Shown one piece after another: positions 4,308-30,195 of a DNA stretch of 31,035 nucleotides. Each line of letters starts with the position of its first letter. Position 1 is the stretch's first letter. Source of the DNA: Synechococcus sp. (GTDB lineage Bacteria > Cyanobacteriota > Cyanobacteriia > Thermostichales > PCC-7336); assembly GCA_051439425.1 (NCBI GenBank), contig JBFRWD010000026.1, forward strand, positions 1-31,035, written 5' to 3'. The notes beneath the pieces were generated by a model that worked only from the letters and a program-made list of their open reading frames with translations, was not told the DNA's origin and did no database searches. A program made the translations under genes and the position numbers.

Positions 4308-4435
4308 GAACGGGCTCCTCTGAGTTAGCAGACTTATTGTACGGAGTTTGGCTCAACCCAGGTAATTCCCGGGACAAACGTTACCTCCCCCCATGGTTAT
4401 CCGAATTTTCTTAACACTCTGTCAACACAGTTGAG

Positions 4436-4441
4436 ATTATA
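4436..4441 (-). promoter_or_regulatory. Candidate -10 box (TATAAT) for ccmK3-ccmK4
   Basis: Perfect TATAAT on the minus strand about 130 nt upstream of ccmK3, preceded by an A-rich tract; no consensus -35. Confidence 0.45.
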
Positions 4442-4627
4442 GGGGGTTTTATTTTCTTTATGGGTTGCTGACACAGGTCCCAAAGAATAGGAGCGCGATC
4501 GCTGCTTTAGTCTTCGAGTTTGGGTTCGAAAACATATTGGCAAAACGCAGGTAGAGTATTGTTGCACAAGGCATGTGAGGGCTCACGTTGTTGATTGAGG
4601 TGAAAGGACCCGATCGTTCTGCAACGC

Positions 4628-11982: not shown

Positions 11983-13749
11983 CTATGCGGCAACTCCAGC
12001 GGGAACTGAACTCGCATTGACCAAAGCGGATATAGCAGATTGAAGTGCTTCCATATTCTGATGAGCGGCCGTTGTTGCTTGGCTGTATTGCCCTACCCCT
12101 TGTTCCACCGAGCCCATCAAGGTCTGCAACTTAGCCAGCAGTTCTTTCACGTCTTGCATGTGAGCCTGCTGTGCAGCTGTGCGTCCTCGTGCTCCTGCTA
12201 CATCCTGGCACCGTTGCCAGAGATCGGCCTGCCCCTGCTCTAATTGCTGTTTGAGGCTGTCTGCCTGCTGCTGTTGCTCGGCTGCCGCTCCTTGTTGCTG
12301 CTGTAACGCAGTCCGCTTTTCATCCAAGTTGGCCGTTAACGTTTGTCGTTCCGTCTCGCACCACTGGCGCTGGCTATCGAGTTGCTGCAACAGCGGTCCC
12401 AGATCGACCTTGGGAATGGATGGCCCGCTATCGTCTCCACGCAAGCGTTTTAAGAGCCCTTCTTGCTCGGTAAGCTCTTGCTGTTTCTTCTCCAATGCTC
12501 GTTGCTGGGGGGCTAAGCTGACCTCTAATGTGCTGCAAGCGGATTTGGCATAGTCAATATCCATCTCAATATCGAAGCGATCGCCATCGCTGGCCGTCTC
12601 CAATCGCTTCTGTAACTCATCGAGTTTGTGGTGATTCTGCTGTAGTTCCGAGACTTGCTGCTCGACTAACTGAGCATGTTGTTCATAATCTCGTCGCAAA
12701 CTTGCAACTTTCGCCTCTAATTCTTCAGGGCTGAGTTGTGGAACAGCTCCTGCACCATCAAATCCTTCGGCCACAAGGACATCTCCGCGGGTTGCCAATA
12801 ATTGGCGCCAGTGACTCAGAGCGTCATCTTGCTTGCGAAGCCGATCTGATAGAGCTGCCAGGTGCTCGTCTCCTATGGCAATGGCTGTCTCTAGAGCTCC
12901 AATCTCTGCACGAATGTCAGCGATCGCCTGTTGTATTTGCAAAAATTGTTGATGATGCTGAGTCCAATCATTAAGGGTTGAATTAAGTTGCTCTGTTTGA
13001 GTGTCATGCTGCTGCTGTTCGGATTGCAGTGTTGCCGCAGATGCATCAATGGTTTGCAGTCGCTGACTAACCTCTGTCTGTAGCTGTTGTAAAGCCTGTG
13101 TGGCAGTTCCATCGTTGATTTGTAACGATTGAGACACCGTTTGGCTGAGTGTTTGTAATCGTTGAGCTTCGGCTGAATCTAGTCGAGATGCAGCATCTGA
13201 CTCTAGAGCTTGTAGTTGTTGCTGGCGTTCCTGAAGCGCAGTCAATTGTTCGTTGAGTTGGCGGCGCTGTTCCCCCATTGCCTGCTGCTGTTCGCTGAGA
13301 GTTTTCTCCTGGGTTTCGATTTCAACCCGTTGAGCTTGCAAATTGGATAGATCGGTCTGGTAGCTCTGATATTGTTCGTCAAGTTGCTGGAGCTGCTCTT
13401 CCCGAGTTTCCAGTTCAACTTCCCGGCGGTTGAGTTCTTGACTCTGAAACGTGAGCGATTGTTTCCATTGCTCGATCTCTTCTTCTTGGCCCTGGCTTTT
13501 TTCCAAAATCCGAGAAAAAGCCTGCAAGGTACCTACGATTTCTCGAGAGGCTTCGCGAATTTTCATCACCTGACGGCTGGCATTAATCTCCGCCAGGATC
13601 AACATTCCAGCATTGAATTTTGCCGAGTCTTCGATGGGCAAGGCTTCATCGTTCACCGCCACCCAAGATCGATCTGAGACTTGCTTTGCTAGCAGCTGAA
13701 TTTTTGCTATTCGAAACGACCCTTTGTCTACAGCGGCTAAATACAACAC
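11983..13749 (-). CDS. hmpF: Pilus motility/taxis coiled-coil protein HmpF
   Basis: MLYLA start, LLA-x-Q-x-SDRSW, EEIEQWKQSLTFQSQELNRRE signature, long Q/E-rich coiled coil; divergent from the Che cluster; GTG start with GAGGA upstream. Confidence 0.9.
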   Translation of the reverse strand: MLYLAAVDKGSFRIAKIQLLAKQVSDRSWVAVNDEALPIEDSAKFNAGMLILAEINASRQVMKIREASREIVGTLQAFSRILEKSQGQEEEIEQWKQSLTFQSQELNRREVELETREEQLQQLDEQYQSYQTDLSNLQAQRVEIETQEKTLSEQQQAMGEQRRQLNEQLTALQERQQQLQALESDAASRLDSAEAQRLQTLSQTVSQSLQINDGTATQALQQLQTEVSQRLQTIDASAATLQSEQQQHDTQTEQLNSTLNDWTQHHQQFLQIQQAIADIRAEIGALETAIAIGDEHLAALSDRLRKQDDALSHWRQLLATRGDVLVAEGFDGAGAVPQLSPEELEAKVASLRRDYEQHAQLVEQQVSELQQNHHKLDELQKRLETASDGDRFDIEMDIDYAKSACSTLEVSLAPQQRALEKKQQELTEQEGLLKRLRGDDSGPSIPKVDLGPLLQQLDSQRQWCETERQTLTANLDEKRTALQQQQGAAAEQQQQADSLKQQLEQGQADLWQRCQDVAGARGRTAAQQAHMQDVKELLAKLQTLMGSVEQGVGQYSQATTAAHQNMEALQSAISALVNASSVPAGVAA

Positions 13750-14582
13750 GCTTTACGATCCTCGTTATTTCAAGAAAGATGTCTCAACAGTGAACTGAAT
13801 GCCAGCAGCTCACCGGGGAATTACGGCTTGAGCCGCATACCTGATTTCACTTTCCAACCTCGCTCGTTGGTTACCTTCCACCGAGTCTGCACCTCTGAGA
13901 AGAGAATGTACATCACACATACCCCACGGGATGAAGCATTTCGTACAACCAATTACTTGTTATGGACTCGTGACAATTGGATGCTGCCCCTACCAACTAT
14001 TGCCTGCGATTGCTCAACAAGCGGACAGGCCTTAACTGACAGATCGTTACTAGTGGAGCGAAGTCACTGTCATGCTAACTGCGGTTCCGATAGAGATAAA
14101 ACGGGGTTCTTCTGCGTTAAGTAGGGCATTTACCCAGAGAACTCCAAGCCGTTGGAGCTCATGCAGAATTGGGTCATATCCAGAGCTGGGACATGCTGCA
14201 AACAGTTGGATGAAGCTATGATTGCCGATACAATAGTTAGCTGGAGAAAAGCTGAAGGATGTCTTCTGCTGTTATGCTCCTACCGCGTTCGACCGGCCAG
14301 CTTTGTCTGTAAGCATGCACCGATACCTCTAACATACCCACAAGACGGGCTCGATCCTACGTAAGCTTGTCGCATTCTCGATTTTGTTTTGTGTCACAAA
14401 CCATGGTTTAAGCGGTTTGAAATGGAGCAGCAAAATCGAATGAGTGTTTTCGATTACGTGGGCTGGTTAACCTGTGACAGAGTATGCACGGAAACGGGCA
14501 CATTGACTGTACGCAGGGGTCAAGATGCTGGCTCGATCGCTCCACTTCGCTTGGTCTCGCCGCCGATTTCTACAGGTTAACT

Positions 14583-15737
14583 ATGCAAGGAAAGCTACAA
14601 GAAATTGATATTCGCAGCATCCTTCAACTTATACAACTGGGACAGCGGACGGGAGAACTGTTTGTAGAAGCCAGTGTATCCAAATATTGGTTTGTATTTT
14701 TTCTAAACGGCCGTATCATTTATGCCTCGGAATCTGACGGGAGTGTCGCCCGATTGCGCGACTACTTGCGTCGATTTCAGGCAGAAGACACTCTAGATGC
14801 CGTACCGCCGCAACCGAAAACAGGAACCAATGCCCCTGAATACGCTCACCTATGGGCGTTGTTGGAAGCCCACCAATTGGATCCAGCTCGCGGAAAACAG
14901 ATTGTTGGCAGCATGATTCGGGAGGTGCTATTCGACCTATTGAGCTTGCATCAGGGATCGTTCATCTTTGAGTCTGCTTCTCCGCTGGCCCCTCAGCTGG
15001 CTGCGTTTGAGATCGGGCCGTTATTGAGGGAAACCGCGACTCACGTGCAGGAATGGAAGAAGCTGCATCCCTATGTCCAGTCCCCGGACCAGTCGTTCTC
15101 CCTCACTAATCCATCGGCATTACAGCAATCTCTCCCGCCACAAATTTATGCAACTTTCCAAAAGTGGTCTGATGGTAGCACCAGCATTCGTCAGATGTCT
15201 CGCTATTTGGGCCGAAATATTTTGACGGTAGGTAAAGCCATGTGTCCCTACATTCAACAGGGCACCATCCAGCTGTCCGAGGTCAAGATGGAGGGAGGAC
15301 TGTCTCTAGGTCGAAGCTCTGACTCCCCCCCTCATATTGTCTGTATTGATGACAGTATGGCTATTCAGAAAACGGTGGAATATATCTTGCAAGGGGCAGG
15401 GTATCGAGTCACCTCGATAGATAATCCTCTCAAAGCCTTGGGACAGGTGTTTCTACTCCAGCCTGACATGATCCTGTGTGATGTCGCGATGCCTAAGCTC
15501 GATGGATACGATCTGTGTGCCATGTTGCGCAAGTCCACAGCATTTCGACAAACTCCAATGGTCATGTTGACGGGTAAGGATGGCTTCACCGATCGCATTA
15601 AAGCGCGGATGGCAGGAGCCAATGACTTTTTGACAAAACCGTTTGGAGAAAAGGAGTTGTTAACTGTGATCGAATCCTATGTGGGAGCACCGTTGGAAGC
15701 AGGGGTTCCAGAAAGTTTGGCTGCCTCTTCGATCTAG
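14583..15737 (+). CDS. PatA-type response regulator (PATAN + receiver), HmpA-like
   Basis: MQGKLQEIDIRSILQLIQLGQRTGEL (PATAN/DUF4388); C-terminal receiver CIDDS...LCDVAMP...MLT...LTKPF. ATG 14583 preferred over 14484. Confidence 0.93.
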   Translation: MQGKLQEIDIRSILQLIQLGQRTGELFVEASVSKYWFVFFLNGRIIYASESDGSVARLRDYLRRFQAEDTLDAVPPQPKTGTNAPEYAHLWALLEAHQLDPARGKQIVGSMIREVLFDLLSLHQGSFIFESASPLAPQLAAFEIGPLLRETATHVQEWKKLHPYVQSPDQSFSLTNPSALQQSLPPQIYATFQKWSDGSTSIRQMSRYLGRNILTVGKAMCPYIQQGTIQLSEVKMEGGLSLGRSSDSPPHIVCIDDSMAIQKTVEYILQGAGYRVTSIDNPLKALGQVFLLQPDMILCDVAMPKLDGYDLCAMLRKSTAFRQTPMVMLTGKDGFTDRIKARMAGANDFLTKPFGEKELLTVIESYVGAPLEAGVPESLAASSI

Positions 15738-15991
15738 CTATGCGACCGATCGCCCCAAGTGCTGCTCATCTCCACATTTGCGTAGAATGCTGGCACCGGA
15801 GATCGAATGGCCAGATGCTTACAGCCGCCGGTTGAATGATTCTGGCTTTGGTTTGAATGATTGATTTTTTAGCATTTTTGGAATGCTTATGATTGGTAGT
15901 TATTCAAACTTCGCGATCGGTATCGTCTCTTTATTTTTGGCACGAGGTTCTGTATTACCTCAGATCGATCCGGAAGGAATGTATGGACACT

Positions 15992-16357
15992 ATGAGCAAA
16001 GTACTGGTCGTTGAAGATAGTCCCGCCCAGCGGGAAATGATTATCGGACTGTTGAAGGAAAATGGCCTTGATGTTATCGAAGCCAGCGATGGAGTGACAG
16101 CGCTGGAATCTATTCAAGGTCAAGTCCCTGATGTGATCGTGCTCGACATTGTGATGCCGCGCATGAATGGCTATGAGGTTTGTAGACGGCTGAAAGCAGA
16201 TCCGGCAACTGAGAATGTTTCGGTTGTGATGTGTTCTTCAAAGGGTGAAGAATTCGATCGCTACTGGGGAATGCGCCAAGGCGCAGATGCGTACATTGCA
16301 AAGCCCTTTCGCCCCAAAGAGCTGATCGGCACCATTAAGCAGTTGTTGAGGAGCTGA
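15992..16357 (+). CDS. CheY-like single-domain response regulator, HmpB-like
   Basis: MSKVLVVEDS...VLDIVMPRMNGYEVCR...CSSKGEEFDRYWGMRQGADAYIAKPF; start is 15992 or 15983. Confidence 0.95.
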   Translation: MSKVLVVEDSPAQREMIIGLLKENGLDVIEASDGVTALESIQGQVPDVIVLDIVMPRMNGYEVCRRLKADPATENVSVVMCSSKGEEFDRYWGMRQGADAYIAKPFRPKELIGTIKQLLRS

Positions 16358-16361
16358 GTCT

Positions 16362-16889
16362 ATGACTGGGGATCTGGATTTTGACCTTCTAGCTCAGCCT
16401 GGTACTGATGAGCTGCAGGAGCTTGAAGTTCCTGCTGGTGAATTACACCTGAGATTCCAATTAACGTCTGGAACTGAGTTAGCGTTTGCCGCAGCAGGTA
16501 TTGCCGAGGTGATGTCTGTCTCTGCCGAGCAAATCACCCCCATGCCCAATGTCTCGCCACTACTATTGGGAGCCTTAAATTTCCGAGGAAAAGTTATTTG
16601 GGTGGCCGATCTCGGTCAATTCTTAGGAGATAGACAACCGCTGAACTCCGACCGCAATGACTTGCCTATCCTGGCTATCACAGATGGTCAGGATACAGTT
16701 CTGGCCGTTGCTGTACAGACCATTGTTGGGATGGAATGGCTAGAGAAAACTACGTTGCAATCTTCCGATGAATGTCCTGAGGAGATGGCTCCTTTTGTCC
16801 AGGGTGAATGGGAAAATTCGGATACAGGACATCCCTTACGACTCCTGGATCCTGGGGCCATTATTCGATCCAGTCGGTGGGTGACGTAA
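16362..16889 (+). CDS. CheW coupling protein, HmpC-like
   Basis: ITPMPNVSPLLLGALNFRGKVIWVADLGQFLG, LRLLDPGAIIRSSRW. Confidence 0.95.
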   Translation: MTGDLDFDLLAQPGTDELQELEVPAGELHLRFQLTSGTELAFAAAGIAEVMSVSAEQITPMPNVSPLLLGALNFRGKVIWVADLGQFLGDRQPLNSDRNDLPILAITDGQDTVLAVAVQTIVGMEWLEKTTLQSSDECPEEMAPFVQGEWENSDTGHPLRLLDPGAIIRSSRWVT

Positions 16890-17026
16890 GTCGCAGTGGT
16901 GTGTAGCGCAATCGGACTGAACAATTAGGGAAAGTTGTTTTTAGCGATTTCAAATCGTAGGGCTATTGGATTTGTTTTTTGCCTGTCACGCTTTTTGTTC
17001 CCGTTGAGTGACGTTTACTACTGAGC

Positions 17027-17072
17027 AGCAGCAATTGGCCCAGTTAGCAGCAATTGTCTCAATTAGCAGCAA
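17027..17072. repeat. Imperfect 19-nt tandem repeat (about 2.4 copies)
   Basis: AGCAGCAATTGGCCCAGTT / AGCAGCAATTGTCTCAATT / AGCAGCAA. Confidence 0.85.
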
Positions 17073-17229
17073 GCGAGTGTAGTCAAAGTATGTGGAAGAC
17101 TGTTGATTCTGTTGGTCCTATTATCGCCGCGTACCGGTTCGAGGGTGGGTGTCAACGAATTGCTGCTCCATCAGTGGCCTACTCAACACACCATTTAGCA
17201 GAGATTCAGGTTTAGGAGCATCTTCAGCC

Positions 17230-19809
17230 ATGGTTTCGAGCATTGATGACAATATAAGAGATCGCGCGATGCAAGCATTTGCTCGCGAAGAATACTCTGA
17301 AGCGACTCAACTGTTCGGACAGTTGACCAATGAGTCTCCGGAAGATCTCTCGCTTAAGTTATGGCTGGCTTCCTCACAGCAGTTGTCGGGATATCCAGCG
17401 GCGGCCCGAGAAACCTACGAATCTGTGTTGATGGAAACAGACGATCCCGACCTGATTGGAGCCGCGAACAATGGTCTAGCCCAGCTCCAAGCTCTTCAGG
17501 ATGGTACCAGTGGGGAGCAGTCTACTGATATGAATACCAGCCCTCTGCCAACACCCGGTGGCAACGTTCCTCTGCTTGAGGATAGTGACCTGAACTTCAA
17601 TTTAGATGAACTATCGATGACTAGCACTAACACAACCTCTCTCAATTCTACTGAGGACACAGCAAAGATAATGGCGAACGCACCCGAGTCTGGCGAACGC
17701 CCTGAGGGCGGGCATATTGCGGAAATGCCGCCAATGGATGGCTCCGAAAACCCAACCAATGTCTTGGATTCGAGCAACGTGTCCGACGATCTCATCTTTG
17801 ATGAGTGTGATGAGAAGGAGTTGTTTGCGGATGTGAGTGGTGATGTATCGAGCATCACTCCGCCTGTTGGCACGCAAATGTTTGCCAATGAAATTGAGGC
17901 CGATGATTCTGTCTCTGGGATTGAAGCGTTAATGGGTGACACTGCTAATGCAGTAGGTTCCGATCGCACTGTTTTTGCTAGCAGTGACTCTGAGAGCGGT
18001 AGTCTGGGAGGCGACTTTTCTGATGATGACTTTGCTTTTCTTGAAGAGTTGAATGATGAAGTCGGCATGATCGATGAAGGCTCTTCGACGCATTTTGCGG
18101 CTGTGGATGATTACGAGTTTGAAGCCGAGTCTTTTACCACTGTGGATAATGCCTCTGACGTTGTGGGAACTGTTCTGGAAGAGATGCCCGAGCGGGACTC
18201 TAGCAACACGATGCTTTTTGATGGCATGCCAGAACCATTTATTCCGCTAGGAGGCGGTGAAGACTACGCGGTGGCTGAGGATAACGACAATTTACTGTTG
18301 CTAGAGGATGATTCAGACGCACTGTTCGATGGGGTCGATCTGGATGATTCGCTCGAGTCCTCTGTGGAGCCAGCGGGGATCGACCCAACCCCTTCTGAGG
18401 CGGTAACAGTCGACAGCACAGCCTCTTCTAGCAATCCCGCAAAAGCTGCTGGGTTACAAGGTGTTGCCATTCTGGCTGCTAGCGCCCTTGGGTTCTTTGG
18501 TTTGCAGACAGTTGTGCCCAATCCCATGGTTCGTGGGGTGGTTGGGGCCGTTGCCGGAACGGTTGCCGGAGCTGGCGTCGGGTTTGTTACGGCTAAGCAG
18601 CAATCTGCAATTGCCCGCCGCAGCTTGCAGGTTTTGAGTGCGGATATGGAGGCAATGTCTCAGGGCAACTACACAGTTCGCACAACGATTGTTTCGGGAG
18701 ATATGGCCCCATTGGGGCATGCATTTAACTATATGGCTCAAGCGGTTGAAGAAAATCTAGGGGCTTTAGAACGTCGAGCAGCTGAACAAGGGCAGGCAAA
18801 AGAAGATCTGCAACGTCAGGTGATCCGATTGCTCGATGATGTGGAAGGGGCAGCTCGCGGAGATTTGACCGTGAGGGCAGAGGTGACGGCTGACGTGCTA
18901 GGGGCTGTAGCCGATTCGTTTAACCTGACGATTGCCAGTTTGCGTGAAATTGTGGGTCAAGTGAAGCAGGCGGCAGCTGCTGTGAACGATGCCGCGAATG
19001 ATAACGAGACGCTGTCACGGGATCTGTCGAACGAAGCATTACGCCAGGCGGATGAGATTTCCAACCTGCTGAACTCCGTTCAGGTGATGACACAGTCGAT
19101 TCAAGATGTGGCCGGAAATGCAAAAGAGGCCGAACAAGTTGCTCAACAGGCTTCCGAGACCGCTATTCGCGGAGGCGAGGCGGTAGAGAGAACGGCCGCT
19201 GGTATTTTGGCCATTCGAGAAACGGTGGCTGAAACCACCCGACAGGTGAAGCGACTGGGGGAATCTTCTCAAGAAATTTCCAAAATTGTGGCCTTTATTT
19301 CCCAAATTGCATCTAGGACCAATCTACTAGCGTTGAATGCCAGCATTGAGGCCGCTCGTGCAGGAGAAGCGGGTCGAGGATTCGCAATTGTTGCGGATGA
19401 GGTGCGACAACTGTCCGATCGCTCCTCCAAGGCATCGAAGGAAATCGAGCAGATTGTAATGCAAATTCAGTCTGAGACCAGTCAGGTGATGACAGCAATG
19501 GAAGAAGGGACTCAGCAGGTCATCGAAGGAACCAAACTGGCAGAACAAGCGAAATCTAGTCTGGACGAGATTATTCAGGTAAGTCAAACCATTGATGGTT
19601 TGGTGCGATCGATTACAGCAGCAACTGTTGAACAAACAGAAACCTCTCGAACCGTAGCTCAGGTGATGCAAAATGCCGAGCTGACCTCCAATGAGACGTC
19701 TCAGGAGGCCCAAAAGGTATCCAGCTCTTTGATGAAACTGGTTGCAATTGCTCGCGACCTGCAGTCGTCGGTTGGTAAGTTCCGCACCATCAGCGAAGAA
19801 GCGTTATAG
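17230..19809 (+). CDS. Methyl-accepting chemotaxis protein, HmpD-like (TPR-like N-terminus, acidic region, 2 TM, HAMP, MA domain)
   Basis: [36 protein letters not shown] hairpin tip; [25 protein letters not shown] 17230 preceded by AGGAG. Confidence 0.96.
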
Positions 19810-19920
19810 GCGAGTTAATACTCCCCCAAGGCAGCGGCAAATGCGCTGCGTTTTCCCTCTACCAGAGTGGCCACGGATTGAACGAGCCGCCTGCACTTTA
19901 GCCGATTGAGGATAGATTCA

Positions 19921-22900
19921 ATGGATCGCGAAGCACAACAACGGATTATGGGTTTCTTCATCGAAGAAGCTCGCGACCATTTGGTGAATCTAGAGCAGGG
20001 GCTGCTGAGCCTGCAGGAAAGCGCTTCTGATGCAGAACTCATCAACGAGCTGTTTCGTGGGGCTCACTCCATTAAAGGGGGAGCGGCAATGCTGGGCATT
20101 TCCAGTATTCAGCACACTGCGCACCGAATGGAAGATACGTTCAAGGTCTTTCGCGAGCGCGAAGTCCCCGTAGATCGCAAGCTCGAAACGCTACTCCTGC
20201 GCTGCTACGACACGCTTGCATCGCTGTTTGATAAATTGCAGAGCGATGAAGGGTTGTCGCCAGAGGATGGAGACGCTGTTCTATCCGAAACAGAACCCAT
20301 TTTTCAGCAGCTCGATTTACATATGAAAGTGCTGCTGGGTGAGCTATCTCCGGAAGCCGCCGCTGCGCAGATTGGGGCTGCAGATGAAGCTACTCCTGCT
20401 GCAACCAAGAAAGCCCCTGCTTTACAGGATGTATTCCAGCAATACGTTACGCGACTGATGCGAGAGATGCTGGATCTGTTCAAGCAAAGTGACAGCGCCG
20501 ATACCCGCTCCCGTTTGCGAGATGTCGGTCAGTCGTTAGCCCAACTGGGTGATACCTACGAACTGCCCACGTGGTCGCAGCTTTGCGAAACGATTGATGC
20601 TAGCTTGGCCAATCCCGCTAATCAATTCCCGCCGCTGGCTCGGCAGATTCTGCCAGCACTCAAACAAGCTCAGAAGCAAGTGCTGGCTGGTGAGGCGGCT
20701 GCAATTCAGATTTCTGCAGAATTACAGGCCATGGCGACGGCTGTAACCGAGATATCTCTGGTTCCTATCTCTGTTGTCGAGGATGTTCAGCCTGTACCAG
20801 AAGACGTACAGAGTGCAGAGTCTCAGGGGGGCGACCTGGCTGATTTGTGGGGACGTGCTGCTGAGGCACCGGTTGAAGCTCCCGATAGTCTTGCGGTTCC
20901 CGCTCCCGAACTTCTAGCAACTGACGATCGCGCAGAAGAGTCTGGGACTTCTCTGAATCTAGAGCTTGCTTCAACTGATGTAGAGATCGACCCACTGACC
21001 GCACAACCCACGTCAGGTTTAACCGATCTCTTTGGTGTTGAAGATGCGGTTGACCCCAGTGATGATTTGGTGTCGAGTGATATATCGTCGCTGTTTGCCG
21101 CAGATGAGGACAATGTAGCGGAGAGCTCTACTCCCCTAGATGTGCTTGACGCTGAAGAGGCTGTGTTACCAGAAATAGCTCCAGATGGTGATGTTGGCTT
21201 TGCCGATTTGTTTACGCCAGATGAGACTGAATTGGCAGTTAGTGACGTTGAAGCGAGCTCTCCAGTTGAAGCGAGGGCTGAATCTACTGACGATAGTTTT
21301 GAAGATTTGTTCTCCGAACCCGAACCTTTGCAGGTGGATGCACTGGCCTCAGATTTTGACTTTACGGACGACTTAGGAGAGGCGGCACCCTCAGTATCAG
21401 TAAACGAATCCGATGTCAGCTTAGATGAACTCGATTTGGGCTCGATGTTGTCGGAGCCTGCGAGCGAAGATCCGCTCGACGTCGGGTCTGCCGAGCTGCT
21501 TAACTTCGAGCATGCGTCTGATGAGGTTGACTCATCAACAGTGACGGACTCAACAGCTTCGAGTAGCTGGGACGATCTGGATGGTTTGTTTGATGATGCA
21601 CCGGCAGCTAGCGCTCCGACGAGTGCTCAAGTATCCCCTGTCTCCTCCCCGTTGCCTGAGAGTAGCCCATCGGTACAACCTCAAGTGTCTGCAACTCAAG
21701 AGGAAGGGGAGGCCGATCCATTCGCAGCCATAGATGAAATGATGGAGGGAGGCTCTGTCGGTAAGCCCAGGGCGGCTTCTGCCCCGGCGGCTCGCGCCTC
21801 GGCAGCTCCCCGTCGTTCTCCAACGAAGGCAGGATTTTCAAGTCCCACCATGCGGGTAGAGGTGAAATATTTGGACCTCATCAACAACCTGGTGGGGGAA
21901 ATGGTTGTTAGCCGAAACAGCTTGGAGCAGAATCAGGCGCGTCTACAGCAGTTTCTGGAAAACTTGCTCTTCCGTGTACGGCAATTGGGGGACATTGGAC
22001 AAAAGATGCGCGATCGCTACGAACGCTCCTTATTAGAAGCATCGCTATTGCGCAGTACCAATGCCGTTTCTCGCCCCACCACCAATACTGATGGAAGTGA
22101 CTCTCACGCTACGGGCGCTGATTTTGATGCCCTAGAAATGGACCGATTTACGGCGTTTCACAGTTTGTCTCAGGAAATTATTGAACTGATTGTGCGGGTG
22201 CGGGAATCTGCATCCGATATTCAGTTTGTGGTAGACCAAACGGAACAGACCGCTCGCCAGTTCCGCCAAAGTACATCCCAACTTCAGGACAATCTCAATC
22301 GGGCCCGTATGGTGCCATTCTCGCAGATTGCCGATCGTTTACCCCGAGCCATTCGAGACTTGTCGTTTAAAACTGGCAAGCAAATTGATTTGTTAGTGGA
22401 TGGTCGTGACACCCTGATCGACAAAGCCATTTTGGAAGAGTTGTACGATCCGATGACCCACTTGGTCAATAACGCGATCGTGCACGGTATCGAAGAGCCT
22501 CAAGTGCGTGAGAAGAGTGGTAAAGCCCCAGAGGGATTAATCAAGATTCAGACCTTCTATCAAGGAAATCAGACCATCATTGTGGTATCCGATGATGGAC
22601 ATGGCATTGATGCTGCTCGCGTCAAGGAGAAGGCACTAGCTCAGGGGTTGCTGAGCGAGAAAGAGGCAGCGTCAATTTCGGATAACGAGCTTTACGACAT
22701 CATCTTCCACGCTGGATTTAGTACGCGATCGCAAGCGGACGAGCTAGCCGGTCGTGGCGTGGGGATGGACGTCGTGCGCACTCGCTTGAATGACTTACGA
22801 GGCACCGTCCAGGTGGACTCTGTTCCTGGCCAAGGCACGACATTTACCATTCGCTTGCCGCTGACGTTGAGTGTGTCGAAGGCCATGGTCTGCGTCAGCG

Positions 22901-23805
22901 ATAAAGCCCTGATTGCTTTCCCCTTAGATGGTGTAGAAGAGATGGTAGACATCTCTTTGGACAGCGTGCGCAGAGATGCTGAAGGGAATAGCTTGATTGA
23001 CTGGCAGGATCAGGAACTGATTCTCAAGCCTTTGGCAGAGCTATTTAGCTATGGCAATCGCCATAGCCGCGGTCATGCTGAGGTTTATAGCTCGTCGTCT
23101 TACAGCGATGATGTGGTTCCGATCATCATCCTGCAGAGTGGTGGCCAACGGGTTGCCGTTCAGGTAGATAGTTTTGTGGAAGAACAAGAGATTGTAATTA
23201 AGCAGTTGAGTGGCCCAGCTCCCAAGCCATTGGGGATTGCTGGGGCAACCGTGTTGGGTGATGGTCGAGTTTTGGCGATCGCAGATACATTAGAGCTGAT
23301 CGATTTGGCCTATGGCCGTACCCGCCGCGATCAAATGCGCTTCTGGATGCCGGAAGGGGCTCAAGATGACCCTGTTGTTAGTGAAGATACAACTCCAACG
23401 GTATTGATTGTGGACGACTCGATTACGGTGCGCGAGTTGCTGTCCATGAGTTTCAACAAAGTGGGATACAAGGTGGAGCAGGCTCGTGACGGTCAAGATG
23501 CGTGGGACAAGCTGCGTAACGGCTTACCATGCGATCTGATATTCTGCGATATCGAAATGCCTCGAATGGATGGTTTGGAACTGCTATCTCGGATGCGAAA
23601 AGAGGAGCAGTATCAGGATTTACCGATCGCCATGCTCACCTCACGAGGGGCCGACCGACACCGCCAGATGGCATCGGATTTGGGGGCCAATGCTTACTTC
23701 ACCAAACCGTATTTGGAAGAAGAGTTGCTGACTGCTGCCAAGCGTCTACTTTCAGGAGAGAGTCTACTAGAAGCGGCTGTTCAAGCAGAACCGTCTCAAG
23801 CCTGA
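19921..23805 (+). CDS. CheA-type hybrid histidine kinase (Hpt, linker, dimerisation, HATPase, CheW, receiver), HmpE-like
   Basis: FRGAHSIKGGAAM (Hpt), HLVNNAIVHGIE, DDGHGID, GFST, GRGVGMDVV, GTTFTIRLP, C-terminal receiver IVDDS...CDIEMP...TKPY. Confidence 0.96.
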   Translation: MDREAQQRIMGFFIEEARDHLVNLEQGLLSLQESASDAELINELFRGAHSIKGGAAMLGISSIQHTAHRMEDTFKVFREREVPVDRKLETLLLRCYDTLASLFDKLQSDEGLSPEDGDAVLSETEPIFQQLDLHMKVLLGELSPEAAAAQIGAADEATPAATKKAPALQDVFQQYVTRLMREMLDLFKQSDSADTRSRLRDVGQSLAQLGDTYELPTWSQLCETIDASLANPANQFPPLARQILPALKQAQKQVLAGEAAAIQISAELQAMATAVTEISLVPISVVEDVQPVPEDVQSAESQGGDLADLWGRAAEAPVEAPDSLAVPAPELLATDDRAEESGTSLNLELASTDVEIDPLTAQPTSGLTDLFGVEDAVDPSDDLVSSDISSLFAADEDNVAESSTPLDVLDAEEAVLPEIAPDGDVGFADLFTPDETELAVSDVEASSPVEARAESTDDSFEDLFSEPEPLQVDALASDFDFTDDLGEAAPSVSVNESDVSLDELDLGSMLSEPASEDPLDVGSAELLNFEHASDEVDSSTVTDSTASSSWDDLDGLFDDAPAASAPTSAQVSPVSSPLPESSPSVQPQVSATQEEGEADPFAAIDEMMEGGSVGKPRAASAPAARASAAPRRSPTKAGFSSPTMRVEVKYLDLINNLVGEMVVSRNSLEQNQARLQQFLENLLFRVRQLGDIGQKMRDRYERSLLEASLLRSTNAVSRPTTNTDGSDSHATGADFDALEMDRFTAFHSLSQEIIELIVRVRESASDIQFVVDQTEQTARQFRQSTSQLQDNLNRARMVPFSQIADRLPRAIRDLSFKTGKQIDLLVDGRDTLIDKAILEELYDPMTHLVNNAIVHGIEEPQVREKSGKAPEGLIKIQTFYQGNQTIIVVSDDGHGIDAARVKEKALAQGLLSEKEAASISDNELYDIIFHAGFSTRSQADELAGRGVGMDVVRTRLNDLRGTVQVDSVPGQGTTFTIRLPLTLSVSKAMVCVSDKALIAFPLDGVEEMVDISLDSVRRDAEGNSLIDWQDQELILKPLAELFSYGNRHSRGHAEVYSSSSYSDDVVPIIILQSGGQRVAVQVDSFVEEQEIVIKQLSGPAPKPLGIAGATVLGDGRVLAIADTLELIDLAYGRTRRDQMRFWMPEGAQDDPVVSEDTTPTVLIVDDSITVRELLSMSFNKVGYKVEQARDGQDAWDKLRNGLPCDLIFCDIEMPRMDGLELLSRMRKEEQYQDLPIAMLTSRGADRHRQMASDLGANAYFTKPYLEEELLTAAKRLLSGESLLEAAVQAEPSQA

Positions 23806-24591: not shown

Positions 24592-24706
24592 GAATCGCTA
24601 AGTGTGATTCAAGCTATCTCATTGTGTGTTGAGCCATTGAAGGGGTGACAGTGCTGTTCAGACTGGCTGTTTTGCAACTGTTGTGAATAGGGTCAGGTTG
24701 GACGTT

Positions 24707-25414
24707 ATGGTTGCGCTGTTTTTAAACCGTCGTGAGGCAGGTCAGTGTCTTGCTTCGCGGCTAGCATCGTTGGCTAACCGAGCTGATGTGGTGGTTGTGG
24801 CTTTGCCACGGGGTGGAGTCCCGATGGGATGGGAGATCGCGCGGGCACTCGCCGTGCCGTTAGATGTTTGCATCGTGCGCAAACTGGGGGTTCCCCAACA
24901 GCCCGAGTTGGCGTTTGGGGCGATTGGGTCTGGCGACGTAATAGTTTTGAATCCTGATGTTATCGATGCGTGGATGTTGTCGGCTGACGAGATCGATCGC
25001 GTAAAAGCCAGAGAGCAGCAAGAGCTTCATCGACGAGAACGGTTGTACTGTCAGGGACGCCAACAGCTCCAGTTGACCGGCAACGTCGTCATTCTGGTCG
25101 ATGATGGCGTAGCAACAGGTGCGACGGTGAAAGCCGCAATCTCAATCGTGCGTCAGCATCATCCTCGGACAATAGTTGTGGCCACTCCTGTGGCTCCCCC
25201 AACAGTTTGTGCCGAATTGCAAGCAGTAGTAGATTGTGTCGTTTGCCTTGCTATGCCCGCTACGTTTCGGGCGATTGGCGAGTGGTTTGTGAATTTTGAG
25301 CAATTGTCCGATGAAGAGGTTCGATACTGCTTGCGCAAGACGACGGCAGTCCGACCTCCCGAACTCCATGTCCCCCGCGCTTCGCTCGACTTGTTGGATG
25401 AACAATTGACTTAA
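24707..25414 (+). CDS. Type I phosphoribosyltransferase-family protein
   Basis: FLNRREAG, ALPRGGVP, VRKLGVPQQPELAFGAI, PRPP-binding VILVDDGVATGAT, FEQLSDEEV. Confidence 0.92.
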   Translation: MVALFLNRREAGQCLASRLASLANRADVVVVALPRGGVPMGWEIARALAVPLDVCIVRKLGVPQQPELAFGAIGSGDVIVLNPDVIDAWMLSADEIDRVKAREQQELHRRERLYCQGRQQLQLTGNVVILVDDGVATGATVKAAISIVRQHHPRTIVVATPVAPPTVCAELQAVVDCVVCLAMPATFRAIGEWFVNFEQLSDEEVRYCLRKTTAVRPPELHVPRASLDLLDEQLT

Positions 25415-25608: not shown

Positions 25609-27990
25609 TTATTCCAGTCCCGTCGGAGTGCCTTTGACGGACGTGACCACCCGCCCCCAGCCGTTTTTCTTGGGGTCAAACAGGGTTTTGAGTGTGGAAT
25701 ACGTGTAGAGATCGTACTCGCCCCCCTGACCGATGGCATACCTGTTGCTGGTGCCTTGGCGTGTACCGTAGGGATCGTGAATGAGAAATCCCGATTGCGC
25801 TGGATCGTGGCCCACGACAACTACAATGTGTCCCGATCTCTTGTACAACACGCCAATCACCACCGGTACGTTAGCTTTCAGAGATTTGAGTAAGAACTCT
25901 TGTGACAGACTGGTACTCCAGTAAGAGTTCACCCCAAAATCGTTGAGTGCCTTCGTTTGAGCGTCATGGTTGGTGGTGTCCCCGTAGCGGGCCACAAAAT
26001 CGTCGTATACCGATTCCGCCTGGCTTTGCGATCGCTGTAGTGCCAGTACATCGAGTTCGCCATCGAGTAGGTAGTTCAGCAGCATGGCGTTACTGCTGGT
26101 GCAACACTGGCGCGAGCCCGGACCAAACACATCTGTGGCGTTATCCAGCTGCGAATAATACTTGACGTCTAGCTTCAGGAGCTGTTTGTTGCTGCCTGCC
26201 ACGGTGGAGGCGCTCGCTGTTGCCTGCATGGGACTGCTCTTCTGGGAGAGTGGGTTGGGGCGCTCGCTTGTCGCGTTCACCGGCGTGCAAAATAATGCGG
26301 CCTCCTCCCCCCGTCTCCGTTTCAACCCTGCGGTCACATTGGGAGCGTTGGGGTTGCAGTACAGCTCGAAAATCCGAGTTACTTCGGCCTTATTGGTCCA
26401 CAAAGTGGGGCTGTCGCACAGTCGAGTAATGGACTCCCGATTGGCGGCTCTGTAAAAGCCTGGCCCTAAATTGTATGCAAAGCTGTACAGCGCGCCCTGC
26501 TGATTGACGTTCATCTGGCTCCATGTCGGAATCTTCGCCAATATGGGTCGACATTTTTGCAGCAGGAAATCCATCAGGTACTGTTGGGCTTGTTCCCGAG
26601 TGACCGTATCCCCTTGCTTGACTTTGCGGCCATCGGGATAGGTTGTGGTTCCGTACCCAATTGTTGGCACCTGCCACCCATGAGCGGGATCGGGATAAGC
26701 ATTTGCCCTGAACCCCTCGTGTTTTTCAATCAGTTCCACAACTCGAGACGGAATGCCGTCAATAGAGCGGCTCGCACTGGAATGCTTAGGGCGATCGGTT
26801 GTTGGGAGATTGGTTATTGCACTCGCAATGGCAGTATTGCTTCCGGTCGCATTAAGGCTGCTACCTTGCTTGGCTGGAGGCACCTCTTTCTCGGCCAGGC
26901 CATCCAGCAAGTTTTTGACACTACCCTGACCGATCAGGTGAGGATTGCGCTGATGGCGATCGGTTTTAAATGCGACCCAAGCAGTCACTAAATCTGCTTG
27001 CGATTGCCCCACCGCTTGGCCATTGAGTTGACCCAAGGTTAGACGGACAGCCGCTTCTGGAACAGGGGGGAGTTCGGCGACATCCTGGGCATCAACAATT
27101 TGAGTTTTCAGCACTGTCTCCGCATCATTAAGGCTCATGGATTGCAATTCTCGCTCCACGGCCGCAAAATCATACGGCTTAATCTGTTCGATCTGAGCTT
27201 GTGTTGCCTCCAGCGTGGACTTCACTTCGTCGATCGCCGCTCGATCCGCGATCGACTGCGTTCGCTCGGTTTTCAGCTGTTGATTCTCTTCTGATAATTC
27301 CTGATTTTTGCGTTGCGCTTCTTCCAGACTGGTTTCGTTAATGCGATCGATGAATTTCTTGAAGACCGCTGCGATGATTACTTTGCCGCCGTATCCGCCG
27401 ACCACACCAGCCACTGCCATATGCCCTGCAGAGTCCTGCCAGATGTCGGGCAAAAATTGATAGGCCAATAGGGCTCCTGAAATCCCAATCAGGACATCGC
27501 CAATGATGCCGGGACTAATGTTTTCCCCTCGAATTGATGCTGTGGGCAGTTCGATATTGTTGTCCGAAACAATCGTATAAATTATTCCGCCAAACCAGCC
27601 AAAGATACAGAGCAGCAAAAATTCAGGGTCTGCTGTCATCCATTGCAGTGGTGTATGTATGCCCTCGACTTTACCGTCATTGCCAATCAGTCCGGCCAAA
27701 AAGAGAGCGAACAACACCCCCCCAGATAGCGATGAAACCAGAATCAGCCACTTTTGCGCGATCTTGCTAAACGACACCAACACCAACAACAGCAGGCTGC
27801 CTGACACGAGCGAGACCAGGAAATATGTCGGTATGTTGAGTGCCAGAGCCAAAAACAGAATAGTGACGATTGACAGAACAATAGCTGTTAGCTTGAACGC
27901 CGAGGTGACTGCGACGGCTGACTTGACTGAGTCTGTGGTGACCAACTCTGATTGTTTGACTTGGCCTGTTGGAGAACTTTTGTCGCTCAT
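25609..27990 (-). CDS. Membrane-anchored multidomain protein: about 6 TM + coiled coil + PG-binding-like segment + GH24 lysozyme + C39-like cysteine peptidase
   Basis: Hydrophobic helices aa 34-210; GH24 motifs HEGFRANAYPD...TIGYG, ALYSFAYNLG, GLKRRRGEEAALF; C39-like YYSQLDN...RQCCTSSNAM...GHIVVVVG...IHDPYG. Confidence 0.9.
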   Translation of the reverse strand: MSDKSSPTGQVKQSELVTTDSVKSAVAVTSAFKLTAIVLSIVTILFLALALNIPTYFLVSLVSGSLLLLVLVSFSKIAQKWLILVSSLSGGVLFALFLAGLIGNDGKVEGIHTPLQWMTADPEFLLLCIFGWFGGIIYTIVSDNNIELPTASIRGENISPGIIGDVLIGISGALLAYQFLPDIWQDSAGHMAVAGVVGGYGGKVIIAAVFKKFIDRINETSLEEAQRKNQELSEENQQLKTERTQSIADRAAIDEVKSTLEATQAQIEQIKPYDFAAVERELQSMSLNDAETVLKTQIVDAQDVAELPPVPEAAVRLTLGQLNGQAVGQSQADLVTAWVAFKTDRHQRNPHLIGQGSVKNLLDGLAEKEVPPAKQGSSLNATGSNTAIASAITNLPTTDRPKHSSASRSIDGIPSRVVELIEKHEGFRANAYPDPAHGWQVPTIGYGTTTYPDGRKVKQGDTVTREQAQQYLMDFLLQKCRPILAKIPTWSQMNVNQQGALYSFAYNLGPGFYRAANRESITRLCDSPTLWTNKAEVTRIFELYCNPNAPNVTAGLKRRRGEEAALFCTPVNATSERPNPLSQKSSPMQATASASTVAGSNKQLLKLDVKYYSQLDNATDVFGPGSRQCCTSSNAMLLNYLLDGELDVLALQRSQSQAESVYDDFVARYGDTTNHDAQTKALNDFGVNSYWSTSLSQEFLLKSLKANVPVVIGVLYKRSGHIVVVVGHDPAQSGFLIHDPYGTRQGTSNRYAIGQGGEYDLYTYSTLKTLFDPKKNGWGRVVTSVKGTPTGLE

Positions 27991-28348
27991 ATCCTATTCC
28001 CTGAAGTTACTTACATCAGCGAGTCGCGATCGTCACACCGCTCATAGAGTTAGGGACTGAACGCCCATCTAGCACGACGCTATCAACGTTTAGCTCCCGC
28101 ATTCGATTGGATATGCACTCAGTCGTAACTTAGGCCGGTTTGCTGCCATTTGACGCTGTGGCCGGCGAATTTAAAGGCTGACGACAGTGGATGGGTCGCT
28201 AGATGTCAACTCTTTTGTATAGGGTTGCATCAGACCAATGATTGGTGGTGATGGGCTCCTGTTAGTTAGGATGCACAATCGTGCAGTTTGAGCAGACAGC
28301 ATTGTAAATCCGGGCCATGCTTGTTACAGCGCATTGGAGCACTGCAGC

Positions 28349-29596
28349 ATGGCAGACTTCGATTTGCTATTGCGAGGATGTCAACTGACCGATCGCGATG
28401 AGCAGCAAGATATCGCGATCGTGGATGGCACGATCGCTGCAATTGAACCGGTGATTACTGCCGAAGTGCGCGAGACGATTGAGGTTGCGGGCAACCTTGT
28501 CATCCCGCCATTTGTGGAATCTCACATTCATCTTGATTCGGTTTTTACGGCTGGCGACCCCCGCTGGAACAAGAGTGGCACTCTATTTGAAGGCATTGAA
28601 ATCTGGCGGGAACGCAAGCAAGATCTCACGTTTGAGGATGTTAAACAGCGCGCTATCGCAGCCCTTAAAGTGCAAGCGTCTTTAGGTGTGTTGCACGTAC
28701 GCAGCCATGCCGATGTCAGCGAAACTAGCTTGACCGCCCTCAAAGGATTGTTAGCTGTGCGGGAGGAGGTCAAGGACTGGATCGATTTGCAGGTGGTGGC
28801 TTTTCCGCAGGATGGATTGTATGGCACCCCCCAACAACTGGATTTAATGAAAGAGGCGATCTCGTTGGGGGTGGATGCGATTGGAGGCATCCCCCATTAC
28901 GAGTTGACTCGGGAAGACGGGGTGCGTTCGATTCGACAAATCTTTGATTGGGCGGAAGCCCACAATCGTCTCATAGACGTTCACTGCGACGAAATTGACG
29001 ACGAACAGTCTCGATTTTTGGAAGTGATGGTGGCCGAAACTCTGCGGCGCGACATAGGCAGTCAAGTTACCGCCAGCCACACAACGGCCTTTCATTCCTA
29101 CAGCAACGCCTATGCCGGAAAGTTGTTGGGCTTTATCGCTCGCACCCAGCTGAATATTGTGGCTAACCCGCTGATCAACATCACCCTGCAGGGCCGCACC
29201 GATACCTACCCCAAACGACGGGGGATAACTCGCGTCAAAGAACTCTGGCAGCAAGGCAGTAATGTTTCCTTGGGCCACGACTGCATTCGCGACCCGTGGT
29301 ACAGCTTGGGTACCGGAAACATGCTCAACGTCGCTCATATGGCTCTGCATCTATGCCAAATGACGGGGCGCGAAGAAATTCATGCTTGCTTGGATATGGT
29401 GACCCACAATGGAGCCCGGACTCTAAATATTGGCGATCGCTACGGGCTGATTCCCCATCGACCCGCTAGCCTTGTGGTGTTGAACGCCCCCAGTGCTTAC
29501 GAAGCGCTACGTACTCAAGCGGATGTTTTGTACAGCATTTACAACGGGCGGGTGCTGGCGCGGACGACTCCGGCGCACACCGAACTCGTCATTTAG
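28349..29596 (+). CDS. codA: Cytosine deaminase (bacterial amidohydrolase type)
   Basis: PPFVESHIHLD, WNKSGTLFEGIE, VAFPQDG, GGIPHYE, DVHCDEIDDEQSRF, SHTTA, LQGRTDTYPKRRG, GHDCIRDPWY; ATG 28349 after GGAG. Confidence 0.95.
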   Translation: MADFDLLLRGCQLTDRDEQQDIAIVDGTIAAIEPVITAEVRETIEVAGNLVIPPFVESHIHLDSVFTAGDPRWNKSGTLFEGIEIWRERKQDLTFEDVKQRAIAALKVQASLGVLHVRSHADVSETSLTALKGLLAVREEVKDWIDLQVVAFPQDGLYGTPQQLDLMKEAISLGVDAIGGIPHYELTREDGVRSIRQIFDWAEAHNRLIDVHCDEIDDEQSRFLEVMVAETLRRDIGSQVTASHTTAFHSYSNAYAGKLLGFIARTQLNIVANPLINITLQGRTDTYPKRRGITRVKELWQQGSNVSLGHDCIRDPWYSLGTGNMLNVAHMALHLCQMTGREEIHACLDMVTHNGARTLNIGDRYGLIPHRPASLVVLNAPSAYEALRTQADVLYSIYNGRVLARTTPAHTELVI

Positions 29597-29748
29597 GTTG
29601 AGGTTAGCGATGACAGTCAATAACGAGCGACATTGTTTGCTAGTCAATACTGCTGCAATCTTGGTGATTGCCCTGCTTTGATTCACCTTTTTCTGGCTCA
29701 TTGATTTCTGTCTCACCTCCTTCTTGTCTATCTCAAGGACATCCCGAT

Positions 29749-30195
29749 ATGCGTTTTCCCATGCAGTTGGCCACCGATCCGATTTCCACTGCGACACTAT
29801 CTCTGTTTGATGTCACTCCTTCGACGTCGTACGTAGAGATACATGGTGATGAAGTCGTGATTCAAGAAGGCAATCTGTTTCGGGAAACGTTTTCATTGTC
29901 GAGTTTGGGCAAAGCCGGTCTGGATAGTTGGGAGTGGTACATGGGGCTAGGGGTACGCACTGATTTTCAAGGAACTGTGGCCCCGATTACTAGCTTTGAC
30001 AAAGTGGTGAGTTTTCCACTGGTGGAGCCGCGATCGCTATTCCTGCGCATCGTTGGTAGTTTGGGTTTGCAGGTGGAATGCAAGCGGTTGGTTCTGAGCA
30101 TGGCTCAGCCGGATGAATTTTTGATCGCATTTAATTCGGCCTTACACGAGGTGGCCGACCCAGAAGCTCCCGAACCAGCAGAATTGGATGAATAG
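29749..30195 (+). CDS. Hypothetical beta-rich protein, possibly bacterial PH-like fold
   Basis: ATG 29749 after AAGGA; SYVEIHGDEVVI...LVLSMAQPDEFLIAF pattern (beta strands then a C-terminal helix). Confidence 0.7.
   Translation: MRFPMQLATDPISTATLSLFDVTPSTSYVEIHGDEVVIQEGNLFRETFSLSSLGKAGLDSWEWYMGLGVRTDFQGTVAPITSFDKVVSFPLVEPRSLFLRIVGSLGLQVECKRLVLSMAQPDEFLIAFNSALHEVADPEAPEPAELDE

Follow-up and report, generated by a model that had tools for sequence, protein, structure and literature searches.

What is a protein with its own membrane anchor and two wall-cutting enzymes of phage type doing in an ordinary stretch of cyanobacterial chromosome, and how would a membrane-tethered enzyme reach the wall from inside? 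The question is raised by a gene on the minus strand of contig JBFRWD010000026.1 (31,035 nucleotides; assembly GCA_051439425.1, Synechococcus sp.), which was analysed whole and is called here the window; it is one complete contig of a genome of 4.8 Mb, in 182 contigs and 96% complete. We call P0001 the protein of this open reading frame (ORF). A preliminary description, made from the letters alone, had seen in it about six transmembrane (TM) helices, a coiled coil, a GH24 lysozyme and a C39-like peptidase, and had proposed a self-contained device for lysis, wall remodelling, secretion or abortive infection.

The answer that we favour, to which we give slightly less than even credence, is that P0001 is a latent self-lysis effector: a membrane-tethered, two-headed murein hydrolase whose heads would rest on the cytoplasmic side of the membrane. 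We would place it among cyanobacterial "tethered lytic effectors", a rare family whose heads are interchangeable and which is defined by a glycine-zipper membrane module that we name after its motif GGYGG. The parts of the gene are listed below, with amino acid (aa) positions; the confidence of the AlphaFold2 (AF2) models is given as the predicted local distance difference test (pLDDT), and hydropathy on the Kyte-Doolittle (KD) scale.

25609..27990 (-): whole gene P0001, with an ATG start; 793 aa plus stop.
27892..27990 (-): N-terminal tail, aa 1-33; low confidence (pLDDT <50 over aa 1-29), variable, missing in ortholog P0003.
27766..27891 (-): extra helical hairpin TM1-TM2, aa 34-75, from hydropathy, alignment and AF2.
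27682..27753 (-): helix a (TM3), aa 80-103, the counterpart of helix 1 in four-helix relatives; mean KD 2.1.
27361..27627 (-): module core, aa 122-210, with helix b, hairpin loop, helix c and helix d.
27181..27360 (-): long charged helix, aa 211-270, unbroken from helix d (a single AF2 helix, 188/190-270).
26761..27180 (-): linker, aa 271-410, with short helices at 275-366 and disorder at 365-405 by pLDDT.
26272..26760 (-): GH24 (T4/P22-type) muramidase domain, aa 411-573, with E425, D434 and T443; pLDDT >95.
26191..26271 (-): inter-domain linker, aa 574-600, disordered (pLDDT <50) and fast-evolving.
25612..26190 (-): C39_2 papain-like cysteine peptidase domain, aa 601-793, with Q614, C629, H721 and D739; pLDDT ~90.

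Both heads announced by the preliminary description are present, with the catalytic residues at the numbers it gave. Phage_lysozyme (PF00959) matches aa 423-563 with an E-value of 8.1e-20 and 71.9 bits, for a cut-off of 22.3; the GH24 domain also matches lysozymes of the PDB (6et6_A, E 2.4e-14), and its Glu, Asp and Thr sit in the context E-x8-D ... T-I-G-x-G. Peptidase_C39_2 (PF13529) matches aa 607-741 with an E-value of 3.6e-13 and 50.7 bits, for a cut-off of 24. In an alignment of 150 sequences, and counting only rows without a gap, the first set of residues is widely kept (E425 in 106/118, D434 in 101/114, T443 in 111/125), as is the second (Q614 in 79/98, C629 in 84/94, H721 in 80/88, D739 in 80/86). 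No solved structure related to the C39_2 domain is found by sequence, the best profile match being 3erv_A, a "putative C39-like peptidase", at E 0.16. There is no match either to the true C39 peptidases that process bacteriocins: Pfam gives only C39_2 and C70 at E <= 1, and the window ORFs include no ABC transporter, whereas the true family comes fused to, or next to, an ABC exporter and a double-glycine leader substrate. The GH24 domain is thus predicted to be a muramidase, cutting the glycan strand, and the C39_2 domain is presumed to be a peptidoglycan peptidase, cutting the peptide stem or the cross-link. The idea that the heads attack lipid II or other cytoplasmic precursors was considered and rejected: relatives carry wall-binding domains, and the MurNAc-GlcNAc bond cut by lysozymes is present only in polymerised glycan.

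The closest known company of these heads is found in phages. A tblastn search with the head region returns 601 phage records, 59 of them with at least 80% coverage; the best are T4-like Synechococcus phages, and gp211 of ACG-2014f, a soluble protein of 405 aa annotated as hypothetical, is ~37% identical over 93% of the region. The PHROGs family phrog_10051, "endolysin", matches across both domains. Judging from these matches, the heads are of the cyanophage-endolysin type. They come from a lineage that, again by comparison of relatives, is leaderless: a crude test finds a hydrophobic leader in only 6 of 147 relatives that lack the membrane module, a set that includes chromosomal Jacalin+GH24+M15 proteins and SH3b-like+C39_2 proteins. 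The cyanophage lysins have the same two domains in the same order and no export signal; they differ from P0001 in being soluble proteins of ~405 aa without module, stalk or linker, whereas the P0001 gene is chromosomal, with no phage genes in 31 kb.

There are other bearers of C39_2. Proteins P0049, P0066 and P0077, and some 20 similar ones (264-305 aa), consist of an SH3b-like N-terminal segment followed by C39_2, without a leader; they are widespread in cyanobacteria, and their C39_2 is up to 56% identical to the window's domain. P0095 (1647 aa) has three TIR domains, WD40 repeats and the same C39_2 subtype at its C-terminal aa 1439-1643, an intracellular architecture of conflict type. The genome of the window itself holds a stand-alone C39_2 homologue (G000:C175:16972-17526), 54% identical to aa 605-787; one TAA lies within the matched frame, and either a pair of genes or a disrupted one may be present there.

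The genome being a 182-contig assembly, one may ask whether P0001 was put together by the assembly as a chimera, or is a pseudogene or what is left of a decaying prophage; we consider any of these very improbable indeed. Other assemblies contain full-length orthologs with the same architecture, 76% and 74% identical, and a genome of the same genus has an ortholog 87% identical (locus L041), matched over the linker, GH24 and C39_2 until its contig ends. Positions 26256-28200 are spanned, at ~97% identity, by a contig of an independent study (run X2) whose sole indel there is an in-frame insertion of 15 nucleotides behind 26796, in the disordered linker (~aa 398). The misassembly that the preliminary description had allowed for is excluded, since full-length orthologs and the independent contig cross the junctions. 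Phage genes are absent nearby, and the ratio of nonsynonymous to synonymous substitution rates (dN/dS) against the 87% ortholog, approximate since dS is close to saturation, is 0.075 overall, 0.055 in GH24, 0.035 in C39_2 and 0.46 in the inter-domain linker, which indicates strong purifying selection on both enzyme domains. With this selection and with both catalytic sets intact, the case of two inactive domains, also allowed for at the outset, appears not to apply.

The heads hang on a membrane part, and this is the new element. Six hydrophobic helices are predicted between aa 28 and 210, where Kyte-Doolittle peaks agree with two AF2 models (helices 28-50, 55-72, 76-103, 122-143, 161-179 and 188/190-270), as the preliminary description had it for aa 34-210. 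The coiled coil that it placed at 220-270 is borne out as a helix, which continues the last membrane helix; the pairing is only presumed, and the models suggest that aa 211-270 serve as a coiled coil or as a stalk spacer. In the core of P0001, helix b reads GWFGGIIYTIV..D, the beta-hairpin loop IELP, helix c GIIGDVLIGISGA and helix d GVVGGYGGK, with a pLDDT of 85-93 over aa 160-210. The corresponding motifs of the family are GG.IY..DG..E.P, G..GD.L.G..GA and GGYGG[KR]. Eleven columns of the module alignment (A3) are invariant, namely G131, G134, G135, P149, G161, G169, G172, G198, G199, G201 and G202, and Y200 is found in at least 90% of A3, whose profile recovers P0001 at E 5.4e-60. P0001 has the three core motifs, a long helix after them and lytic heads, the features by which we propose to define the family.

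No Pfam family matches the membrane module of P0001, SLATT/DUF4231 included. Its fold finds nothing closer in the PDB than a Foldseek E-value of 0.22, with a TM-score of at most 0.2, and the wide VIA-align search (Z at most 6.8) aligns only the long helix, to long coiled coils. The preliminary description had felt a likeness to DUF4257 and YLATT modules, and part of this can be kept. DUF4257 (PF14074; cut-off 27 bits) matches 9 of 25 module sequences under the cut-off, with a best E-value of 5e-6, and a distant relationship is possible; there is no match in P0001 at E <= 1, nor any in its genome, by a search whose control in B. subtilis is positive. YLATT (PF20303) matches none of the 25 module sequences at E <= 0.05, and a YLATT-labelled cluster of the Atlas feature search, 21% of whose members carry YLATT, scores 0.76, under the lead threshold of 0.9. 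No paper on the module or its family was found in the literature searched. Apparently, the GGYGG module is a new membrane domain without a solved or named relative, and the family is undescribed. The idea that the C39-like domain cleaves GGYGG as a double-glycine site was also considered and rejected, because the motif is equally invariant in relatives without C39_2 heads. A PG_binding_1-like segment may lie in the linker, at ~aa 310-365, where hhalign gives a probability of 43% and Pfam gives nothing.

What the module carries elsewhere is the best guide to what it is for. The GGYGG pattern finds 19 loci, in which ORFs were called by a crude script and for which neighbour counts are raw; word searches for module-only and headless forms return at least four proteins each. 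Within the 19 loci, two-head combinations on the module are GH24+C39_2, GH19+C39_2, SLT+M15_3 and GH24+M15_3; single heads are M15_3, C39_2, the PF11860 muramidase or GH24; M23 peptidases also occur as heads, and there are three headless cases. Two genomes of the same genus have the module on SLT(GH23)+M15_3 (G002) and, with a long insert, on SLT (G001). Six loci have MACPF+Jacalin on the module. Conversely, in P0009, P0016 and P0036 a SLATT domain stands in place of the GGYGG module, and in P0009 and P0036 it is fused to the same C39_2+GH24 heads. Taken together, these architectures argue that different lytic heads share the module as a handle on which they can be swapped; at least four glycosidase families, three peptidase families and one perforin-like domain have apparently been joined to it on repeated occasions.

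This interchange bears on a first alternative, that P0001 is a domesticated phage lysin with a non-lytic role in scaffolding or localisation. The precedent is SpmX of Caulobacter, a membrane-anchored GH24 domain that acts by protein binding, with a C-terminal anchor and a role in localisation. Like P0001, SpmX (NF051871, LysLocSpmX) has GH24 on a membrane-anchored cellular protein of phage-lysin origin, perhaps facing the cytoplasm in P0001, and P0001 has a weak NCBIfam likeness to it at E 1.2e-6; the match is worth 28 bits, however, for a cut-off of 700. Moreover, P0001 keeps its conserved E/D/T and Q/C/H/D sets and a second hydrolase, and its relatives swap GH23, GH19 and PF11860 on one side, M15 and M23 on the other. 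Since non-homologous enzymes of the same activities are exchanged, selection would act on wall cleavage, indeed on wall destruction, rather than on one binding surface. We hold the scaffolding role to be quite improbable.

The MACPF loci extend the picture. In five of them, a MACPF+Jacalin module gene is followed within ~25 nucleotides by a wall-hydrolase module gene, whose heads are M23+PG_binding, GH19+M15_3, SLT, GH19+PG_binding or GH24; the GGYGG module starts both genes.

L027:4080-10169: MACPF/hydrolase module pair.
L031:5770-11511: MACPF/hydrolase module pair.
L033:5995-11907: MACPF/hydrolase module pair.
L035:5869-11682: MACPF/hydrolase module pair.
L026:1126-7035: MACPF/hydrolase module pair.
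L030:3022-6452: sixth MACPF locus, cut by the contig end.

From their composition, such pairs look like a cassette for membrane attack plus wall attack. The fetched flanks of 5 of the 6 MACPF loci contain a gene for a C14 caspase, a caspase-nSTAND1 protein, a CHAT protein or a KAP NTPase.

L026:7648-8670: in this group (C14, C14+nSTAND1, CHAT, KAP P-loop NTPase).
L030:1-2037: same group.
L033:3451-5694 and 11995-12747: same group.
L031:2-5137: same group.
L035:2-1720, 3229-5388 and 12345-12974: same group.

An LCAT-like lipase is also seen at L035:1752-3188.

These neighbours bear on a second alternative, a lysin that aids secretion in the manner of "type 10" systems by opening the wall, and perhaps the membrane, locally and without killing, for protein or DNA cargo. 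A membrane part and wall hydrolases do come together in this one architecture, and non-lytic secretion that depends on holins and endolysins is documented, as parts of PMC9527704 report. However, the window has no candidate cargo or operon partner, no conserved neighbour accompanies the closest subfamily, and MACPF-headed relatives with caspase neighbours point to killing; we judge the secretion role improbable. A secreted interbacterial toxin was considered as well, and rejected: an anchor of four to six helices is incompatible with release, and there is no immunity-like neighbour.

The decisive question is on which side of the membrane the heads lie. In 41 module proteins, the density of lysine plus arginine is 0.17 in the N-terminus, 0.07 in the a-b loop, 0.13 in the b-c loop, 0.05 in the c-d loop and 0.21 after helix d. 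In L037:4966-6915, from a metagenome-assembled genome (MAG) of the Eubacteriales, both a signal peptide at the N-terminus and an Exo_endo_phos domain come before helix b of the module; helix b would therefore run out-to-in, c in-to-out and d out-to-in, leaving the stalk in the cytoplasm. Finally, the number of helices is even in all forms, two in the SLATT versions, four or six, and the TM1-TM2 hairpin, confined to the subfamily of P0001-3, G001 and G002, adds a pair and leaves it even. Because of the charge bias, the L037 layout and the even number, cytoplasmic heads are favoured, and an N-in/C-in resting state is, on these grounds, fairly probable.

The argument turns on two helices. If c and d insert together, or if neither does, the heads are cytoplasmic; if c inserts without d, they are periplasmic, and P0001 becomes an ordinary anchored autolysin. 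Several observations weigh against cytoplasmic heads and hence against the reading that we favour. Helix d has a mean KD of only 1.29 (range 0.84-1.73), versus ~2.0 for helices a-c, and a near-invariant K/R lies inside it; helix c likewise has a conserved D/E. The flank after helix d holds 129 K/R versus 130 D/E, and is weakly diagnostic because acidic residues equal basic ones. The Jacalin, PG_binding_1 and SH3 domains of relatives are typically extracytoplasmic.

It is thus natural to consider that helices a-c and the extra hairpin span the membrane, that d lies interfacially outside, and that the stalk holds the heads at the sacculus, for local wall turnover, for septum or junction remodelling, or to help insert an envelope machine, type IV pili for instance. 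The substrate, after all, is periplasmic, helix d is marginal, and the GC content of the gene is like that of its surroundings. The genome context adds a hint: the P0001 gene and its 87% ortholog each lie tail-to-tail with a CheA/MCP taxis cluster (window 14484-23805; L041:2200-7000), of the sort that controls pilus-based motility in cyanobacteria. The taxis genes, however, are convergent, not operonic, the two clusters are only ~37-40% alike by tblastx, and a phosphoribosyltransferase (PRTase) gene and a SpoIIAA-like gene stand between cluster and P0001 gene in the window, neither being present in L041. Against a periplasmic autolysin also stand the three topology indicators, the leaderless endolysin lineage of the heads, and a handle that is shared with MACPF pore-formers and flanked in relatives by caspase and STAND genes, which fits killing better than remodelling.

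Distribution matters here too. A sample of the class, 201 genomes in 108 genera, has the module in 8 genomes and 5 genera, too rarely for a core wall function, which argues against a housekeeping role; nor is the architecture a common characterised family, a case that the preliminary description had allowed for. With no synteny inside the genus, this gives the gene an accessory character. The wall-remodelling option of the preliminary description is disfavoured by this patchiness, and we retain it as the main rival since helix d is marginally hydrophobic: an anchored periplasmic autolysin is possible, though in our opinion rather unlikely.

The latent self-lysis effector would work as follows. 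The protein would insert N-in/C-in, storing the heads harmlessly on the cytoplasmic side. Helices c and d, marginally hydrophobic, charge-bearing and glycine-rich, would form a conditional hairpin that might rearrange or oligomerise, for example on membrane depolarisation, damage or infection, and thereby breach the inner membrane. The stalk of ~60 residues and the linker of ~140 would then give the tethered heads enough reach to get to the sacculus, with lysis of the cell as the outcome. As the protein is firmly membrane-anchored, its target would be the producer's own envelope. The net result would be a holin and an endolysin united in one cellular chain that serves regulated self-lysis, whether altruistic death or abortive infection, and in the genome of the window the effector would act alone, without a partner gene.

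Further points tell against this mechanism. We know of no precedent for a tethered enzyme that crosses a membrane lesion. No trigger, regulator or partner gene is found near the P0001 gene, in the window or among the small flanking ORFs. PADLOC gives no match: in PADLOC-DB v2, no system model is matched by P0001, P0036, P0007 or the G002 paralogue. The caspase and STAND neighbourhoods, known from raw counts, are those of distant paralogues and not of the P0001 gene; its own genome lacks MACPF, and the only two caspase-like genes there are distant, on other contigs. The self-contained lysis or abortive-infection device of the preliminary description thus fares well in part. Endolysin-type heads, a swappable module, cytoplasmic indicators and the caspase, STAND, KAP or CHAT genes beside relatives are consistent with it; a specific trigger or a role in phage defence is not supported, PADLOC giving no match.

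A wider proposition can be formulated, which as a whole we regard as speculative. The GGYGG module would represent a new class of programmed cell-lysis effector, mainly cyanobacterial, with outliers in MAGs of the Anaerolineales and of one Eubacteriales. Its conditional hairpin would open the inner membrane and deliver, from the cytoplasmic side, its own tethered wall hydrolases or MACPF pore-formers; in some lineages a MACPF-plus-hydrolase pair would be wired to caspase, STAND or KAP regulators, gasdermin-like; and P0001 would be a minimal stand-alone version, triggered by membrane de-energisation in phage infection or damage. Bacterial gasdermins are likewise wired to proteases, and, should the caspase- or STAND-linked paralogues act as activated effectors of death, prokaryotes would have in them a second equivalent of the death systems in which a protease gates a pore-former. 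The collapse of blooms, the release of carbon and the dynamics of phages and hosts all depend in part on regulated lysis of cyanobacteria, of which few effectors are known. The family of P0001 offers concrete, genetically testable candidates, with culturable carriers in Leptolyngbya sp. PCC 7375 (L035), Microcystis aeruginosa LEGE 91341 (L024) and Phormidium strains (L027 and L031), and the heads may serve as lysins active on cyanobacterial walls.

How new is all this? SAR (signal-anchor-release) endolysins, such as Lyz of P1 and R21 of phage 21, have one weakly hydrophobic N-terminal helix immediately before the catalytic domain and wait on the periplasmic side, and pinholins have glycine-zipper helices. 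They recall P0001 in that a lysozyme is covalently joined to a weakly hydrophobic helix rich in glycine and alanine, whose state in the membrane would control lysis; the composition of helix d is similar to that of such a segment. P0001 differs by its six helices, its spacer of ~200 residues, its two enzymes and its predicted cytoplasmic resting side. The context of a phage lysis cassette is lacking as well, with no holin, spanin or phage structural gene among the 19 ORFs and none among the small flanking ORFs, and BgtA, the endolysin of gene transfer agents (NF058676), matches with 41.1 bits for a cut-off of 315. P0001 can thus be likened to a holin-endolysin pair or to a SAR endolysin, without the defining features of either.

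The mycobacteriophage endolysins have C39-like cysteine proteases among their listed catalytic modules (LysA N5; PMC3314691). As far as the consulted parts of that source go, LysA resembles P0001 in combining a C39-like peptidase with a glycoside hydrolase in one lysin, and differs by its host clade, its domain order and its lack of a membrane anchor. The two-helix SLATT/DUF4231 module is a predicted pore-forming conflict effector in passages of PMC7159879. Like our family, SLATT effectors join a predicted membrane-perforating module to variable effector domains, which in P0009 and P0036 are again the C39_2+GH24 heads. The GGYGG module differs: its sequence is unrelated, it has three to four core helices, and no nucleotide-signalling gene accompanies it in the window. 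[quoted passage not shown] So far as these passages reach, such systems resemble the module paralogues in that caspase-like proteases and STAND NTPases are neighbours of lytic effectors directed at the cell itself, whereas the P0001 gene has no C14, nSTAND1, KAP or CHAT neighbour in the window. What is new is therefore the membrane module; the membrane-tethered lysin, or self-directed lytic effector, is known as a kind.

The surroundings of the P0001 gene are plain. Fifteen of the 19 window ORFs of at least 110 aa belong to ordinary cyanobacterial Pfam families, among them GcvT, glyoxalase, a CcmK-type BMC protein, RecJ, a PatA/CheY/CheW/MCP/CheA taxis cluster, PRTase and amidohydrolases; the other four have none. 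As the preliminary description had noted, phage, spanin or secretion genes are absent from these 19 ORFs; holin genes are absent too, and the two spacers that flank the P0001 gene contain no membrane-like small ORFs. The gene appears monocistronic, being convergent with the PRTase gene (24683-25414, +) and divergent from an amidohydrolase gene (28334-29596, +); a scan for promoters and terminators around it gives counts no higher than chance. P0001 is the only GH24 protein and the only copy of the membrane module in its genome. In G001 and G002, homologues of the PRTase and the amidohydrolase lie at unrelated places, and since flanking-gene synteny is lacking there, nothing can be deduced about an insertion site. 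No neighbour or position is conserved in the closest subfamily or the genus.

Elsewhere, one homologous family of long, SPFH/Band-7-like proteins lies directly upstream of the module gene, on the same strand, in 7 of 21 loci (raw count). Two Microcystis members have an SPFH/Band_7 match in Pfam; the remaining ones have no Pfam match.

L019:3198-4892: member of this upstream family.
L021:3512-5164: member of the same family.
L022:5305-5754: member of the same family.
L023:2-1084: member of the same family.
L025:3488-5719: member of the same family.
L028:3674-5803: member of the same family.
L032:112-1725: member of the same family.

At L032:1774-6507 (Crocosphaera chwakensis CCY0110), an IS200/IS605 insertion apparently divides the module gene, between whose N- and C-terminal pieces lie a Y1 transposase gene and one that is OrfB/TnpB-like. 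Outside cyanobacteria, module, stalk and a TPR-like region occur together in Anaerolineales MAGs and in the one Eubacteriales MAG; two Anaerolineales forms (L034:5989-7101 and L036:3352-4461) are headless and share a conserved neighbourhood of sulfatase, APH, GNAT and OTCase genes. In the window itself, the four ORFs without a Pfam match at E <= 1e-5 encode 175-588 aa and lie at 11983-13749 (-), 8141-8866 (-), 1002-1589 (+) and 29668-30195 (+); the one of 588 aa has only a weak RsiG-like match, at E 0.0024.

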